The notes under the pieces: generated by a model
Database searches by the model: none
Told to the model about the DNA's origin: nothing
The model's input: the letters and a program-made list of their open reading frames with translations, nothing else
Position numbers and translations under genes: made by a program
In this document: one piece after another, positions 338-4,383 of the stretch
Layout: each line of letters starts with the position of its first letter
Position numbering within the stretch: position 1 is the stretch's first letter
DNA from: a virus
Lineage: Duplodnaviria; Heunggongvirae; Uroviricota; Caudoviricetes
Reading direction: 5' to 3' (one strand)
DNA: 4,386 nt
IMG/VR virus record: IMGVR_UViG_3300010262_000095
Span: 1-4,386 of that record

Positions 338-1516
338 ATGGCTATAAGCGACACAAAACTGCGTACTATTTATGGTAAACCATATTCGGGCCCACAAGAA
401 GTGGCTGATGCCGATGGCCTCAGCGTACGAATTTCACCGAAGGGGGTCATCCAGTTCCAGTACCGCTATCGCTGGCATGGCAAGCCTAATCGACTTGGGC
501 TTGGTCGATACCCATCCCTGTCTTTGAAGGATGCCAGACAGATCACTGCTGACTTGCGAAAGCTCTATTTCTCAGGAACGGATCCACGCACTTATTTTGA
601 AGAGAAGGTGGAGAACTCCATGACGGTCGCCCAGTGTCTCGACTACTGGTTCGACAACTACGTCTCTACAACTCTCAGAGAAAAGACCCAGGCACTTTAC
701 CGATCAACGGTTATGAAGCGCATGCATGACGCCTTTCCTAATCGTCCGGCATCTTCTATCACGGTTAAGCAATGGGTTGACCTGCTTACCGAAGAAGAAA
801 GAGATAATCCACGCCGAGCAAGGCAGGTGCTAAGCCAACTAAGATCAGCAATAAGTTGGTGCATGCGGCGTCAGTTGATAGATAGTTGCGCAATTATGAG
901 CATCCAACCAAGGGACTTCGGCTCCCGCGCTGAGGTAGGGGATCGGGTACTGTCGTATCACGAACTGGCTAAGATTTGGCTTGCTATTGAAAGAAGCCGT
1001 GCGTCTACGTCAAATAAGCTCCTTCATCAGATGCTTATGCTGTGGGGGGCGAGGCTCTCAGAGCTTAGGCTGGCAACAAAGACAGAATTTGACCTGCTGG
1101 ACAACGTATGGACCGTACCGAAAGAGCATAGCAAGATGGGTAATGTTATCCGCCGTCCAATCTTCGAACAAATTAAGCCTTTCCTCGAAAAGGCCATGAC
1201 AACGTACAATGATGTTCTTTTCCCTGGAGAAGACATAAACAAACCGATCAGCATCGCTGCAGCCAACCGATTCGTAAATAGAATAAGGGGAGGGATGGAT
1301 CTAGGTTACTGGCGAACACACGATTTCAGAAGAACGCTTGTTACACGTCTGTCCGAGATGAATGTCGAGCCCCATGTTACTGAGCGAATGCTCGGTCATG
1401 AACTTGGCGGGATAATGTCCGTATACAATAAACACGATTGGATAGAGGCTCAGCGCAAAGCGTATGAGCTTCACGCTGATAAATTGTTCTGGCACATCAG
1501 GAGCATTTCTGATTAA
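338..1516 (+). CDS. int: Site-specific tyrosine recombinase, P4-type phage integrase (392 aa)
   Basis: Long ORF with the first in-frame ATG at 338, preceded by an in-frame stop at 317-319. The N-terminus (LSVRISPKGVIQFQYRYRWHGKPNRLGLGRYPSLSLKDAR) resembles the arm-DNA-binding domain of P4-like integrases. C-terminal catalytic signature present: HDFRRT (1319-1336), GHELGG His (1397-1399), candidate nucleophile Tyr in SVYNKHDW (1424-1426). No clear SD upstream. Confidence 0.9.
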   Translation: MAISDTKLRTIYGKPYSGPQEVADADGLSVRISPKGVIQFQYRYRWHGKPNRLGLGRYPSLSLKDARQITADLRKLYFSGTDPRTYFEEKVENSMTVAQCLDYWFDNYVSTTLREKTQALYRSTVMKRMHDAFPNRPASSITVKQWVDLLTEEERDNPRRARQVLSQLRSAISWCMRRQLIDSCAIMSIQPRDFGSRAEVGDRVLSYHELAKIWLAIERSRASTSNKLLHQMLMLWGARLSELRLATKTEFDLLDNVWTVPKEHSKMGNVIRRPIFEQIKPFLEKAMTTYNDVLFPGEDINKPISIAAANRFVNRIRGGMDLGYWRTHDFRRTLVTRLSEMNVEPHVTERMLGHELGGIMSVYNKHDWIEAQRKAYELHADKLFWHIRSISD

Positions 1517-1688
1517 CGCCACCGTTAAGAATCCACCCTTCAACAGCTTCACGAAGGTATGATTTGGGGTGGGTTCTGACTGGCTTCGGAAATCCATGCC
1601 GTTTGGTATAGTTCCAGATTGTCTGACGTGATGAAACACCGAGCTTGTTCATCACTTCTTTCTCAGGAATCAGGCTGGTATCGGTCAT
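1497..1688 (-). CDS. AlpA/Vis-family helix-turn-helix protein, putative excisionase / recombination directionality factor (63 aa)
   Basis: ATG at 1688-1686 with SD GGAG (1696-1699) 7 nt upstream. Sequence SLIPEKEVMNKLGVSSRQTIWNYTKRHGFPKPVR...YLREAVEGWI fits the AlpA-family pattern. It lies immediately beside int and its 3' end overlaps the int 3' end by 20 bp. Confidence 0.75.
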   Translation of the reverse strand: MTDTSLIPEKEVMNKLGVSSRQTIWNYTKRHGFPKPVRTHPKSYLREAVEGWILNGGVNQKCS

Positions 1689-1702: not shown

Positions 1703-1729
1703 CAAAAAGAAACCGCCATCAGGCGGTTT
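1703..1729 (-). terminator. Rho-independent terminator: 8-bp stem (1710-1717 / 1722-1729, 5 GC pairs), 4-nt loop, then a U-tract on the minus-strand transcript (1703-1709); possibly bidirectional
   Basis: Seen directly: AAACCGCC-ATCA-GGCGGTTT. The minus-strand RNA continues CUUUUUG; the plus-strand RNA continues GGUGUUCUUUC. The hairpin contains the stop codon of the 55-aa ORF and lies between that ORF and the excisionase-like gene. Confidence 0.6.
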
Positions 1730-1886
1730 GGTGTTCTTTCAGTTCTTCAATTCGAATATTGGTTACGTCTGCATGCGCTATCTGCGCCCATATCATCCAG
1801 TGGTTATAGCAGTCGTTGATGTCCTCTGCTTCGATAACCCTGTCGAATGGCTCTCCATTCCATTCACCTGTGACTCGGAAGTGCAT
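1719..1886 (-). CDS. Hypothetical small acidic protein (55 aa), not in the supplied ORF track
   Basis: ATG at 1886-1884 immediately preceded by an in-frame TAA. SD GGAG (1894-1897) 7 nt upstream. Translation MHFRVTGEWNGEPFDRVIEAEDINDCYNHWMIWAQIAHADVTNIRIEELKEHQTA (11 acidic, 4 basic residues). The TGA stop (1721-1719) sits in the terminator loop. Same strand as the operon. Confidence 0.55.
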   Translation of the reverse strand: MHFRVTGEWNGEPFDRVIEAEDINDCYNHWMIWAQIAHADVTNIRIEELKEHQTA

Positions 1887-1958
1887 TTATCATCTCCATA
1901 AAACAAAACCCGCCGTAGCGAGTTCAGATAAAAGAAATCCCCGCTATTGCGAGGATTG

Positions 1959-2243
1959 TTATTCATTGCCGATATTCACCTTTATCGCGAACACCTTTAC
2001 CGGTTTATCACCGAAGTGCGGATGTGTGATTGTCTTGATTTCATATCCGTCATACGGAACATCAATTCTGCGGCTGGAATCGTCGCGCTTCGGATATCCC
2101 TTTGTGATAATCAGGCGGTCATACTCCCGGAACATAATTCGCTTATTCCAGTAGTCATTACACAGGCGATACTCTTCCGTTTTCTCTCCACTAATCATGG
2201 CATCGAAGTATTCACCTTTGACGGAAAGTTGCAGGTTAGCCAC
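1959..2243 (-). CDS. ASCH/PUA-like small protein (94 aa); start revised to GTG 2243 instead of TTG 2318
   Basis: GTG at 2243-2241 with AGGAGG (2250-2255) 6 nt upstream; it overlaps the upstream gene's stop by 8 bp. Contains GEKTEEYR (2166-2189), matching the GxKxxExR hallmark of ASCH-type PUA-like domains. The ORF-track start at 2318 is a TTG deep inside the upstream gene without an SD. Confidence 0.6.
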   Translation of the reverse strand: MANLQLSVKGEYFDAMISGEKTEEYRLCNDYWNKRIMFREYDRLIITKGYPKRDDSSRRIDVPYDGYEIKTITHPHFGDKPVKVFAIKVNIGNE

Positions 2244-2454
2244 GGTTAACCTCCTGCGCCGTTTTGATGATTGCTGCCAGACAATTCTTGCAAGGAACAA
2301 GCAGCGCTCCCTGCTCAATGCTCAACAGCGCGTGCTGAGCATCCTGAAACAACCAGTCTGAAAATTGTGGCGCATGTCCGCACCACGTTTCTATTTCATG
2401 CTTTGCAAGTTTAACTCCCTCTCGATAGTCATATTTGATGATGTGCTTGCTCAC
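2236..2454 (-). CDS. Hypothetical 72-aa protein with a possible Cys/His metal-binding arrangement (C25, H27, C55, C58)
   Basis: GTG at 2454-2452 with AGGAGG 7 nt upstream; GTGA overlap with the stop of the preceding gene (2451-2453). Translation MSKHIIKYDYREGVKLAKHEIETWCGHAPQFSDWLFQDAQHALLSIEQGALLVPCKNCLAAIIKTAQEVNRG. No family recognised. Confidence 0.55.
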   Translation of the reverse strand: MSKHIIKYDYREGVKLAKHEIETWCGHAPQFSDWLFQDAQHALLSIEQGALLVPCKNCLAAIIKTAQEVNRG

Positions 2455-2642
2455 GACTTCACCTCCTGTTGAGCAGAAACCTGATTTTTGAGTGATTCAG
2501 AAATATTCCTGCAATACCTAGCGGATTCATCGTCGAAAATGCTTTCGAAATACTCAGCAATCCAGCCGAACACAACAACCTGCTCATTGCTTGGATTTGC
2601 GCTTTGATTGAAGGCGGTTATTAGTGATGCACTCATACTCAC
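2451..2642 (-). CDS. Hypothetical small acidic protein (63 aa; alternative ATG start at 2636)
   Basis: GTG at 2642-2640 overlaps the upstream TGA stop (2639-2641); ATG two codons later at 2636-2634. AGGAGG upstream (4 nt from the GTG, 10 nt from the ATG). 8 acidic and 4 basic residues. No family recognised. Confidence 0.55.
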   Translation of the reverse strand: MSMSASLITAFNQSANPSNEQVVVFGWIAEYFESIFDDESARYCRNISESLKNQVSAQQEVKS

Positions 2643-3319
2643 TTAACCTCCTGTTTTGGTGCTGCTGGAAGCGGCATCCAGTGGGTTATGATTACTTCGC
2701 GAGGATTGCAGTCGTCCTCTACTGGCTGCCACTCCGTCCATCCGTTGGTTTGATAGACAAAGAAATAAGCAGGAATGTAGCCTGGTTCATCTCCTTCAAA
2801 ATATGTTCCCCAGCAAAGATACAAGCAATTGCTATCAGGCATTCGCTCACTACAGCTTATCCAACCATCCGGAATTACCGGAGAGTTGCCACCGGGAATA
2901 TTTTCCGGAATATTTTGTTGTGCGTTTTGTGGTTGTTCGGATTTACCCTGAAGCATAGCGGCACGGCAGGCGTTCCAGCCTCTCACCTCTGCAATAGCAG
3001 CAACAGCATCGACCGCGTACATTTTAAGAGGGTTAGGCATTGGTTTTTCTTCAGGTACTACTGGCACTGGAGGGGCGGCATAAACAGGAATAACGTCCGA
3101 TTGATCTTTATTGCTTTCATCTGTTAAAGCCCAGAATAATTTTCCAGCCGGATGTTTGAAAATATAAGCAACTGGTTCTGCTTCCAGCGATGCCAGCGCC
3201 AACTTGAACGCCTGAAGCTCAATGGCACTGTTGGTATCCAGTCCAAACGGTAATTCATCACGATTGGCTTCGTATTCAGCGATAGTTTGCTTCAGCCATT
3301 CTTTGGTTAGTTCAGCCAT
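2639..3319 (-). CDS. DUF551-domain prophage protein (226 aa from ATG 3319; ORF-track start 3370 judged less likely)
   Basis: C-terminal region DGWISCSERMPDSNC...GWTEWQP...VIITHWMPLPAAPKQ matches the DUF551 signature (WI..ER.P ... THWMPLP.PP) as I recall it. ATG at 3319-3317 lies 4 nt after the upstream stop (3324-3326) with a weak AGGG/AAGGGG SD. ATG 3370 has no SD and would overlap the upstream gene by 47 bp. Confidence 0.65.
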   Translation of the reverse strand: MAELTKEWLKQTIAEYEANRDELPFGLDTNSAIELQAFKLALASLEAEPVAYIFKHPAGKLFWALTDESNKDQSDVIPVYAAPPVPVVPEEKPMPNPLKMYAVDAVAAIAEVRGWNACRAAMLQGKSEQPQNAQQNIPENIPGGNSPVIPDGWISCSERMPDSNCLYLCWGTYFEGDEPGYIPAYFFVYQTNGWTEWQPVEDDCNPREVIITHWMPLPAAPKQEVK

Positions 3320-3323
3320 ATCC

Positions 3324-3776
3324 CTAATTCCCCTTGATGCTGACTTTGACGCCAACCTTGCGAATCTCATCGGCGCATCTGTTCACGATACTCCGGTGAA
3401 ACTCACAAAAAATTTTCGCCGACTGCGGCCCTAATGGGTGAACATTGTGCGCACGCGGCAGTACAACCTCCCGCGCCTCCATGTCAGCAATCCGCTTGTC
3501 TTTGGCTTCCAGCTCATCCAGCAGCGCCAGCACGGTAGCTGGATTGGCTGCGGCGATGAATTCAGCATTGGCCTGCTGTTCCATTTGGAAATCTTCATCG
3601 AAACCGCTTTCAGGATGCGCTCCTTCAATTCTGCAAATGGGAAGATATCCAACAACTTCACGATGAATTAGCGCATCATCAGCATCAAATCTCTCCTCTC
3701 CATATTCGAGCGACCACACACCACTCGTTGCTTTCTCTGCCGCTTCACGCAGTGCCTGATAGTCAATCTTGCTCAC
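3324..3776 (-). CDS. Ea22-like (ead/Ea22 family) prophage protein (150 aa)
   Basis: GTG at 3776-3774 with AAGGAGG 6 nt upstream; GTGA overlap with the upstream stop. N-terminal IDYQALREAAEKATSGVWS and internal FIAAANPATVLALLDELE match motifs I recall from lambdoid ead/Ea22-like proteins. Confidence 0.65.
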   Translation of the reverse strand: MSKIDYQALREAAEKATSGVWSLEYGEERFDADDALIHREVVGYLPICRIEGAHPESGFDEDFQMEQQANAEFIAAANPATVLALLDELEAKDKRIADMEAREVVLPRAHNVHPLGPQSAKIFCEFHRSIVNRCADEIRKVGVKVSIKGN

Positions 3777-4204
3777 TGGTTGCCTCCTTTGCGAAGCTGG
3801 GCAGCAAAGTCACGGATAGTGTCATCAAGGTCTGGGCACAACAGATGGTCAGCAAACATCTCCACGCCCTGCGCCCGTACTTCATCCAGAAAAGCATCGG
3901 TGGCTGGGGTTTCAGTAACATCATCTTCCCATTCGCTAAACTCCTCACGACAAAAGTCATTAAATTCCTTCTCAGATTGCTTAAGCGATGTATTTTCTGC
4001 AGCCATCTTCGCGCATTTAGCCTCAAGGTTATCAATCGTGATTCCAGCAGAACGACACTCCCGCAACGCCGTTTCCAGTTTTGATTCAAGTTCACCGAAC
4101 TTACGGACAAGATATTCAGCGTTTGTTTCGTTAATCTTTAAATCTCGTGGGATGTATTTACCTTTCAGAAAACCATCCATCTCAATTAGTGACATTTGTT
4201 TCAT
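3773..4204 (-). CDS. Coiled-coil prophage protein, possibly the N-terminal partner of an Ea22-like pair (143 aa from ATG 4204; ORF-track GTG start at 4222)
   Basis: ATG at 4204-4202 forms an ATGA overlap with the upstream stop (4201-4203). GTG 4222 has no SD. The central region ([38 protein letters not shown]) looks coiled-coil. The C-terminal [21 protein letters not shown] resembles segments of Ea22-like proteins, from memory. Confidence 0.55.
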
Positions 4205-4383
4205 TTCTTCCCACTCCGCCACATCGCATTCAGATATTTGTTTTGATTTACTGACGGAAAAGAATTTCTCTTAAGCAATTCCTCTCTCGATGGCATTGGC
4301 TTTACGCGTTGGCGAATAATCATTTCTGCCGGAAGAATGCCGGGATTGTATGCAAGTCCTCTCATGGTAAATTCCTCAGTCAT
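4201..4383 (-). CDS. Hypothetical small protein; 5' end uncertain (frame is open to the window edge; candidate starts at ATG 4383 and at SD-supported ATG 4365)
   Basis: Frame is open from 4386 to the TGA at 4203-4201. ATG 4365-4363 is preceded by GAGG 6 nt upstream. Translation from 4365: [54 protein letters not shown]. No family recognised. Confidence 0.4.

Follow-up and report, generated by a model that had tools for sequence, protein, structure and literature searches.

The two small overlapping genes described here are best explained as two adjacent, separable accessory cassettes from a lambdoid E. coli prophage, where they sit in the pL-driven exo-xis (ea) region and are carried within one long coupled early operon, and we place the probability of this reading at roughly 70%. 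They lie within the window, the 4,386-nt stretch of viral DNA that was analyzed as a whole, and encode an acidic protein of 61 amino acids followed by a Cys/His-containing protein of 72 amino acids (Table 1). The rationale for not treating them as a dedicated pair is that the family of the 72-aa protein is far more widespread, that it stands behind many different upstream neighbors, and that either gene is found without an intact partner.

Reading of the open reading frames places both genes on the minus strand, and the layout in the original prediction was borne out: the genes share the tetranucleotide GTGA at 2451-2454 (a 4-bp overlap), a strong Shine-Dalgarno (SD) sequence, AGGAGG, precedes each of them, and the upstream product is acidic, with a pI of 4.4 and a net charge of -4.5. 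At pI 6.9 the 72-aa product is neutral, and its AGGAGG lies 7 nt ahead of the GTG start. The claim that the proteins are orphans did not survive, since the upstream protein belongs to phrog_23654 (full-length profile match, E=7.1e-47 over 61/61) and the downstream protein to phrog_4090 (E=2.7e-44 over positions 1-69 of 71), both of which carry the PHROG annotation 'unknown function'. Remote homology and structure prediction, the route initially suggested for placing the proteins, yielded these families together with fold models, and produced no relatives in Pfam, NCBIfam or the PDB.

The window is the int-xis-exo-xis (ea), early-left region of a lambdoid E. coli prophage. On its minus strand the gene order is Ead/Ea22, DUF551, 61-aa, 72-aa, ASCH, orf55 and AlpA/xis, with int on the plus strand; an Ea22-like N-terminus is present, int/AlpA lie on one side, the λ orf55 homolog is 93% identical, and in relatives genes for anti-RecBCD, Erf/RecT and SSB are located further upstream. 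The pair is thus found where exo-xis accessory genes are found, between xis and the recombination genes, on the strand of pL transcription and among coupled small ORFs, in a region that is pL-driven, early and auxiliary (PMC10834534). The DUF551 gene is the upstream neighbor of the 61-aa gene in 10/10 contexts, and its stop abuts or overlaps the 61-aa start such that no intergenic space exists upstream of the pair. At the other end, the ASCH-like gene overlaps the 72-aa gene by 8 nt and is the last gene before terminator-like hairpins detected by a terminator scan at 1936-1957 and 1906-1925. A consensus-only sigma-70 scan detected nothing promoter-like anywhere on the minus strand of the window, the sequence before the pair included, and Rfam and tRNA scans of the window returned no RNA features.

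Table 1 Coordinates of the two small genes, their neighbors, the linkers and the sites within the 72-aa gene.
Feature	Coordinates	Strand	Details
Upstream neighbor with C-terminal DUF551 domain	2639..3319	-	Probable start ATG 3319, 226 aa; Pfam DUF551 E=3.9e-14
Linker CAGGAGGTTAA between DUF551 gene and 61-aa gene	2643..2653	-	DUF551 gene tail ...KQEVK; SD of 61-aa gene
Alternative longer form of 61-aa gene	2451..2642	-	GTG 2642, giving 63 aa
61-aa acidic gene	2451..2636	-	ATG 2636, TGA stop 2451-2453; phrog_23654 member, predicted three-helix protein
Linker CAGGAGGTGAA between 61-aa and 72-aa genes	2458..2468	-	SD of 72-aa gene; encodes QEV in the ...QQEVKS tail of the 61-aa protein
72-aa gene	2236..2454	-	GTG start 2454, TAA stop 2236-2238; phrog_4090 member, probable zinc-binding small alpha/beta protein
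Codons 17-36 of 72-aa gene, divergent recombination patch	2347..2406	-	Spans hypervariable loop 27-33 between C25 and W34
C55-C58 codons, P-C-x-x-C motif at start of C-terminal helix	2281..2292	-	C55 2290-2292, C58 2281-2283
Other ligand-type codons	2443-2445, 2380-2382, 2332-2334	-	H4, C25 and H41, respectively
Linker CAGGAGGTTAA ending 72-aa gene	2246..2256	-	Tail ...AQEVNRG; SD of downstream ASCH gene
Downstream neighbor, ASCH-like 94-aa gene	1959..2243	-	GTG 2243; phrog_625 E=2e-50; ASCH annotation in relatives

The family of the 72-aa protein is large, comprising 422 clusters at 50% identity, and all 28 of the diverse relatives submitted to a PHROG scan matched phrog_4090, while three further families each drew a hit from a single member. 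The family is carried by temperate phages, jumbo phages and phages taken here to be virulent, and members occur in Kagunavirus, Jerseyvirus, Klebsiella, Vibrio, jumbo and Synechococcus phages, all without the 61-aa gene. The laboratory phages mEp043 and mEp213 also carry phrog_4090, and in mEp213 the two small genes are annotated as the hypothetical proteins gp30 and gp31. Pairwise comparison of four divergent alleles of the 72-aa gene gives dN/dS values of 0.09-0.19, which together with the size of the family shows that this ORF is no product of chance. No match to the 72-aa protein was obtained in Pfam, NCBIfam or PADLOC, PDB sequence searches with both family profiles returned noise only (best E 0.41), and a literature search under either PHROG identifier retrieved nothing.

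The zinc-like site initially assigned to C25, H27, C55 and C58 holds for its three cysteines and fails for its histidine. The protein contains H4, H19 and H41 in addition to these four residues, and among 149 family representatives C25, C55 and C58 are each present in 149/149, whereas H27 is kept in just 5/149. Conserved besides the cysteines are H41 (147/149) and position 4, which is H in 105 representatives, C in 30 and a gap in 14, such that all 135 aligned sequences have H or C. Four invariant ligand-type Cys/His residues, as expected of a structural zinc-binding domain, are therefore found in phrog_4090, and this conservation makes it very likely that the 72-aa protein has a Cys/His metal site. 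The structural model is confident, with a helix at 56-70, and has no PDB match. We propose that the protein would form a stand-alone small alpha/beta domain around one metal ion, most likely Zn, held by four of the five residues [H/C]4, C25, H41, C55 and C58. The cytidine-deaminase-type zinc motif (H-A-E ... P-C-x-x-C) resembles the 72-aa protein in that one helix opens with H-A-x and the next with P-C-x-x-C; a deaminase-like assignment (H-A-x...P-C-x-x-C) was rejected, as the Glu is missing, the spacer is short and no fold match was obtained.

Variation in the 72-aa protein is concentrated beside this putative site. The entropy of loop 27-33 is 1.59 bits versus 0.30 for the core, and the alleles of the loop include HAPQFSD and HRPGSFE. 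The window and mEp213 diverge solely in a patch of 60-80 nt within the 72-aa gene, with 63-73% identity over codons 17-36 and 97-100% elsewhere in the pair. Located next to C25, the loop may serve as a specificity surface by which the protein would bind a host or phage macromolecule, and through such binding the protein may, like other exo-xis proteins, tune early infection or the choice between lysis and lysogeny. A small Cys/His protein also occupies the same xis/orf55-ea22 slot of the pL early-left operon in λ, namely Ea8.5, a hybrid homeodomain/zinc-finger protein (Kwan et al. 2013 as cited in PMC10834534) that is auxiliary and non-essential. When the six λ exo-xis proteins, Ea8.5, Orf61, Orf63 and Orf60a included, were compared with both families by BLASTP and by profile, nothing significant was found.

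Would such a loop be directed against host immunity? The 72-aa zinc protein could be specifically an anti-defence factor that inhibits a bacterial immune system, and not a modulator of development or host physiology, with the hypervariable loop driven by an arms race. Hypervariability upon a conserved scaffold speaks for this, as does early expression in a hotspot that in relatives holds anti-RecBCD and Lar restriction-alleviation genes, and the occurrence of phrog_4090 across jumbo phages, temperate phages and phages taken here to be virulent points in the same direction. However, the protein has no homology to a characterized inhibitor, and its peptide strings did not turn up in a text search of the supplements to one large accessory-gene screen. 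A conserved partner was also sought beside distant phrog_4090 members, and the neighbors vary (UvrD_C-like, DUF3310, metallophosphatase and small ORFs with no domain match); the replication or nucleotide-metabolism genes beside distant members fit a role in DNA transactions equally well. We consider an anti-defence role unlikely, if the best placed of the alternatives. Somewhat less probable still is that phrog_4090 represents an unrecognized zinc-binding fold acting as an early host-targeting or anti-defence effector in very diverse phages (temperate, virulent, jumbo and cyanophage), with loop 27-33 setting its specificity and the 61-aa protein serving as its lineage-specific modulator in E. 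coli lambdoid phages.

A modulator of this kind leads to the question of whether the two genes belong together at all. Among 5426 complete E. coli genomes, 42 contain either gene. The two stand side by side in 27 of these, nine carry the 72-aa gene but lack the 61-aa gene, and in six the 61-aa gene is present with nothing directly downstream that matches the window's 72-aa allele. One isolate accounts for five of these six, and there NinX follows the 61-aa gene; the remaining genome has an 85-aa gene inserted between the two small genes. When IMG/VR was probed with an alignment of closer phrog_4090 relatives, 50 intact loci were recovered that display at least 15 unrelated upstream neighbor families, with the 61-aa gene upstream in 12/50 and the other 38/50 lacking it. 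The window's own 72-aa allele, at 99% identity, is found behind other genes where no 61-aa gene is present. Loss is seen from the other side as well: in phage HF4s the 72-aa gene is frameshifted and the adjoining 61-aa gene is intact, and in one UViG a nonsense mutation interrupts the 72-aa gene beside an intact 61-aa gene. Conservation and synteny across relatives, suggested initially as a check on the pair, thus show no co-conservation for the 72-aa gene. Of the original view that these are phage accessory or anti-defence factors in a longer coupled operon, the accessory genes and the operon are retained and an anti-defence pair is not, since the genes are separable.

From the standpoint of the 61-aa gene the association appears tighter, in that a phrog_4090 gene lies directly downstream in 13/13 viral contigs and 10/10 sampled genomes. 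Judged from distribution alone, the 61-aa protein may therefore depend on the 72-aa protein without the reverse being so. A dedicated two-component unit, in which the acidic protein, at least where an E. coli lineage has both, binds and modulates, chaperones or inhibits the zinc protein, would account for this constancy, for the adjacency in 27/33 E. coli genomes with the 61-aa gene and for the translational coupling through the 4-bp overlap. However, very recent shared ancestry accounts for this near-constant adjacency, since the six 61-aa gene copies compared are 98.4-99.5% identical in DNA sequence and the flanks are 97-100% identical apart from the single patch in the 72-aa gene. Moreover, the same coupling linker joins unrelated genes, the same 72-aa allele occurs in other prophages that lack the 61-aa gene, the latter for its part persists next to inactivated 72-aa genes and next to NinX, and no such partner is present across the 422-cluster family. 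A dedicated unit is accordingly doubtful, and a shade less credible than the effector reading above. Under the preferred reading of two separable cassettes, the 61-aa gene would keep its phrog_4090 neighbor through recent descent and not through functional need.

If the genes are separable, how does their paired appearance arise? A motif search identified three matches to the CAGGAGGTNAA linker, the source of the ...QEVK protein tails, in the window versus 0.01 expected. In E. coli LR-24, where the upstream gene is unrelated, similarity begins exactly at the linker motif, such that the identity breakpoints coincide with the linker, and 41/50 of the proteins encoded upstream of the phrog_4090 loci end in E[VA][KQ]. 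A conserved short linker of the form CAGGAGGT(G/T)AA(G)..(G/A)TG(A) closes many unrelated genes of the region with ...QEVK and acts both as a translational coupling signal and as micro-homology for cassette exchange. The paired look of the two genes, with a stop/start overlap and a strong SD in the preceding tail, is therefore the layout that a generic boundary linker produces. Short conserved gene-boundary sequences have been proposed as homologous-recombination sites that reassort neighbors in HK620/P22 (Clark et al. 2001; Susskind & Botstein 1978; both as cited in PMC3029335), and the CAGGAGGTNAA/...QEVK linker acts in exactly this way. A literature search on microhomology at lambdoid gene boundaries found nothing. 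The cooperation of neighbors in this region may nevertheless be hinted at by one distant homolog, the sole fusion seen in a Pfam scan of longer or fused members, in which phrog_4090 is joined to DUF551.

The 61-aa gene itself is far more restricted than its neighbor. The start at ATG 2636 (61 aa, 186-nt CDS) is the one annotated in GenBank/RefSeq records of relatives, and it is likelier than the 63-aa form because AGGAGG lies 10 nt before ATG 2636 and just 4 nt before GTG 2642. The relatives in phrog_23654 form only 14 clusters, all at least 97% identical, and every cluster with a source name derives from E. coli; among isolated phages the gene is present in only four distinct ones (10 records), and its range does not extend beyond E. 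coli lambdoid phages. Pfam, NCBIfam and PADLOC gave no match except a sub-threshold hit to SEN1_N (E=0.02), and no DNA-binding fold was recognized. We suggest that the gene is a young, E. coli-restricted cassette that would have been inserted between the gene ending in DUF551 and the phrog_4090 gene. By analogy, candidates for its kind are λ Orf63, Orf61 and Orf60a, which promote lytic development (PMC10834534) and share with the 61-aa protein the 60-63 aa size class, the operon and the auxiliary status; λ Orf63 and Orf60a are annotated DUF1382 and DUF1317, and the window proteins match neither.

Such narrowness could also indicate a recently acquired, chance-open spacer in place of a functional protein gene. 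The near absence of diversity, the lack of a domain match and the many singleton amino-acid variants of the protein in assemblies agree with this idea. Against it, the ORF takes up exactly the space between two coupled genes and has an SD at the proper distance, and all 13/13 viral contigs with the gene give a full-length match. The six copies compared all stay open and differ by four synonymous versus one internal non-synonymous change, a pattern weakly consistent with coding. Moreover, the AF2 model, built from essentially a single-sequence alignment, is a compact three-helix prediction with pLDDT 76.6 (helices 3-10, 17-33 and 37-60), and the exact 61-aa product occurs in 2240 blocks of an assembly collection. 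A chance-open spacer is consequently quite improbable.

The resemblance to a type II toxin-antitoxin module, in which an acidic upstream antitoxin and a Cys/His toxin would stabilize the prophage or abort infection, ends at two small overlapping genes with an acidic upstream product, and we regard such a module as close to negligible, since by the sigma-70 consensus scan the minus strand carries no promoter-like site of its own for the pair, neither protein falls in a toxin, antitoxin or defence family (PADLOC defence models included), neither has the expected DNA-binding or toxin-like fold, and the genes are not co-conserved, with the putative toxin on its own in nine E. coli genomes and likewise in phages taken here to be virulent, toxin-only arrangements common, and the putative antitoxin persisting after toxin loss.

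As originally posed, the locus is ordinary: the two genes are hypothetical, and among the hypervariable accessory regions of lambdoid phages theirs is the best known. Nevertheless, phrog_4090 is a reasonable structural and functional target, with its five-residue Cys/His signature, its confident fold without a solved relative and its hypervariable loop. The locus also provides a worked example of how an SD-containing linker both couples translation and shuffles cassettes, and it carries the caution that an overlap with a strong SD in such regions should not be taken as a sign of functional pairing.

The two genes, which code for an acidic protein of 61 (alternatively 63) aa and, downstream, a 72-aa Cys/His protein, are best explained as accessory cassettes that can be separated from each other and that share a coupled early operon. 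Taken from a lambdoid E. coli prophage, whose integration-proximal end it represents, the window carries on its minus strand a single run of closely packed genes, listed below in order of transcription. The product of the 55-aa gene has 93% identity to λ orf55, and the Ead protein has an N-terminus in common with λ Ea22; the pair therefore sits in the exo-xis (ea) region, whose early transcription in λ starts at pL and whose role in growth is auxiliary (PMC10834534). This position bears out the original prediction of phage accessory genes in a longer coupled operon. By megablast, parts of the window were matched in 568 phage records (lambdoid and Stx phages for the most part), and all complete E. 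coli genomes also gave matches. The region is mosaic, since no record held 80% of the window as a single stretch. The promoter scan revealed no sigma-70-like promoter on the window's minus strand; overall, the window holds 11 terminator-like sites (4.2 expected) and one promoter-like site (6.4 expected).

Features of the window, with minus-strand genes in order of transcription
Feature	Position	Strand	Order in run
Tyrosine integrase, 392 aa	338-1516	+	
Coiled-coil protein	3773-4222	-	1
Ead/Ea22-like protein	3324-3776	-	2
Protein with C-terminal DUF551 domain	2639-3319	-	3
61/63-aa ORF	2451-2636/2642	-	4
72-aa ORF	2236-2454	-	5
ASCH-like gene	1959-2243	-	6
55-aa gene	1719-1886	-	7
AlpA/Xis-like gene	1497-1688	-	8
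CAGGAGGTNAA, junction before the pair	2643-2653	-	
CAGGAGGTNAA, junction between the two genes	2458-2468	-	
CAGGAGGTNAA, junction after the pair	2246-2256	-	
Two terminator-like hairpins directly 3' of the ASCH-like gene	within 1906-1957	-	
Bidirectional terminator-like hairpin 3' of the orf55 homologue	1710-1729	-	

The mechanical ORF of the DUF551 protein (243 aa, 2639-3370) overlaps the Ead/Ea22 gene, and the true start is likely the ATG at 3319, which gives 226 aa and lies 4 nt past the Ead stop; PHROG matches of the long ORF start at residue 16-18. The integrase and AlpA/Xis-like genes are convergent, with 3' ends that share 20 bp (1497-1516). Matches to phage records begin only at about base 111 of the window, those to prophage-containing records at base 1; the latter records bear, in this first part of the window (within 1-337), a 'duplication due to insertion' annotation for Stx phages. 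For this reason, the attL or att core of the 2851-type integrase probably lies near base 110. Relatives are integrated beside sbcB, the exonuclease I gene being seen in one of their contigs (L019).

Neither protein proved to be the orphan originally supposed, since the 72-aa protein belongs to phrog_4090 (E=2.7e-44) and the 61-aa protein to phrog_23654 (E=7e-47). A word-indexed search yielded 47 close clusters of the 72-aa protein, in Escherichia, Salmonella, Enterobacter, Citrobacter and Cronobacter, and an exhaustive profile search yielded 422 family clusters at 50% identity (E<=1e-3). By tblastn the family is present in 60 phage records, which include the lambdoid phages mEp043, mEp213, IME10 and HF4s, Guernseyvirinae (Kagunavirus, Jerseyvirus SETP3) that we take to be virulent, Klebsiella and Vibrio phages, 250-kb jumbo phages and Synechococcus phages. 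The 72-aa protein has no match in Pfam, NCBIfam or PADLOC, and the source names of its family offer nothing beyond 'hypothetical protein'. A metal site had been proposed from C25, H27, C55 and C58, all of which are present. Among 149 phrog_4090 representatives, one per 50% cluster, C25, C55 and C58 are invariant (149/149 each), H41 occurs in 147/149, and position 4 is H in 105, C in 30 and a gap in 14, such that every aligned sequence has H or C there; position 27 is H in only 5 and mostly R, A, E or K. Based on this conservation, the proposal was right in spirit and named the wrong histidine. W24, G26, W34 and F36 are also near-invariant. The five ligand-type residues (position 4, C25, H41, C55 and C58) probably serve one tetrahedral zinc site. 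A resemblance to cytidine deaminases (H-A-x...P-C-x-x-C) was rejected: the family lacks the Glu, 108/149 sequences have a 13-residue spacer and the fold search returned no deaminase.

What might such a protein do? The loop at residues 27-33, which adjoins C25, is hypervariable in close relatives (1.59 bits versus 0.30 in the core), and in a comparison of the whole pair with mEp213 strong divergence is confined to one patch of 60-80 nt that covers the loop, where identity is 63-73% against 97-100% in the rest of the pair. The loop is likely a specificity surface, through which the protein would recognize its target. Two distant family members (P0122 and P0209) hold two tandem copies of the domain in one polypeptide, and some relatives have a helical or DUF551 extension, arrangements more in keeping with a binding module than with an enzyme. 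We hypothesize that the 72-aa protein is a zinc-stabilized, stand-alone binding module which, early during infection or induction, would act on a macromolecule of either the host or the phage, with a role akin to that of other exo-xis proteins in modulating host physiology or the lysis-lysogeny choice, or possibly in anti-defence. An anti-defence role specifically is a doubtful candidate. In the distant homologue P0104 (174 aa) the phrog_4090 domain is fused to a C-terminal DUF551, and in E. coli prophages the gene directly upstream of the pair or of a lone 72-aa gene usually ends in DUF551 (contigs L006, 2206-2733, and L005, 2184-2672), joined to varied N-terminal domains such as dATP/dGTP pyrophosphohydrolase and Ead/Ea22. 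DUF551 and phrog_4090 may be functionally linked; alternatively, DUF551 may merely be a promiscuous domain.

One question is whether the two genes form a unit, as was first suggested and as co-conservation and synteny should reveal. Either gene occurs in 42 of 5426 complete E. coli genomes, the adjacent pair in 27 and the 72-aa gene without the 61-aa gene in 9; in five of these nine the lone gene is the window's own allele (99% identity), preceded by a DUF551, dATP/dGTP-pyrophosphohydrolase-DUF551 or Ead/Ea22 gene. Upstream of 50 intact phrog_4090 loci in IMG/VR lie 15 unrelated neighbour families, the 61-aa gene being upstream at 12 of the loci. The upstream gene in Kagunavirus XY1 codes for an unrelated basic 61-aa protein, and the neighbours of three distant members include a UvrD_C-like protein, DUF3310, a metallophosphatase and small ORFs without domain match. 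By these distribution data, the 72-aa gene is not part of a unit with the 61-aa gene. Viewed from the 61-aa gene, a phrog_4090 gene almost always follows (10/10 sampled contexts, 13/13 viral contigs). This adjacency is weaker as evidence because one isolate has NinX downstream instead, E. coli ZF8-1 has an 85-aa gene inserted between them, and the 72-aa gene is broken beside an intact 61-aa gene in isolated phage HF4s (frameshift; L001, 3321-3532) and in one IMG/VR UViG (nonsense mutation at W34; L088, 1683-1895), copies that could be genuine pseudogenes or sequencing errors. The inserted gene (L004, 1747-2004) has no family match and bears the same linker on both sides, a clean case of single-cassette insertion. 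The 61-aa protein is very narrowly spread, with 14 clusters that are all at least 97% identical, E. coli as the source wherever one is named, and close matches among isolated phages in four lambdoid phages only (10 records); the DNA of six copies is 98.4-99.5% identical. Given this near-zero diversity and near-identical flanks, the constant neighbourhood most simply reflects recent common descent of one DNA segment. A dedicated complex of the two proteins would agree with that constancy and is, set against the varied partners of the 72-aa gene, unlikely.

Both ORFs look like real genes. Four divergent alleles of the 72-aa gene give pairwise dN/dS of 0.09-0.19, and six copies of the 61-aa gene differ by four synonymous changes and one internal non-synonymous change. 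That the latter ORF is non-functional might accord with its narrow spread, and is quite improbable for a reading frame that occupies the exact interval between its neighbours; it would rather encode a young, lineage-specific accessory protein with a target of its own.

The layout first described was found in full: GTGA at 2451-2454 is common to both ORFs as a 4-bp overlap, and AGGAGG precedes both starts, at 7 nt from the GTG of the 72-aa gene and, for the upstream gene, at 4 nt from GTG 2642 or 10 nt from ATG 2636, the latter being annotated in database records (61 aa). The upstream product is acidic as described (pI 4.4, charge -4.5) and the 72-aa product is neutral. The motif search located three copies of CAGGAGGTNAA in the window against 0.01 expected, each holding the next gene's SD and coding for QEV of the preceding tail (...KQEVK, ...QQEVKS, ...AQEVNRG). 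When the window is aligned with other prophages, this linker marks the exact point at which similarity to unrelated arrangements begins or ends, and 41/50 upstream neighbours of phrog_4090 in viral contigs have E[VA][KQ] as their C-terminal ending (29 have QEVK), although 15 unrelated families are represented. The pattern looks like cassette shuffling by micro-homology, a behaviour already proposed for lambdoid mosaics and their 'boundary sequences' (Clark et al. 2001; Susskind & Botstein 1978, as cited in PMC3029335). Since unrelated genes share the linker, the overlap and strong SD belong to the region and not to the pair. The type II toxin-antitoxin module that the layout had suggested is hardly credible, as the pair shows none of the testable features that define such systems.

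The closest known counterparts are the λ exo-xis small proteins, above all zinc-binding Ea8.5, which occupies the same slot in λ; sequence comparison with λ exo-xis proteins found no homology of the pair to Ea8.5, Orf61, Orf63 or Orf60a. Existing catalogues list both genes as hypothetical proteins and as PHROG families; the two are therefore lambdoid exo-xis accessory genes and not a new system. What remains of interest is phrog_4090, a large phage family without a structural representative that, judging from its conserved residues, probably binds zinc.
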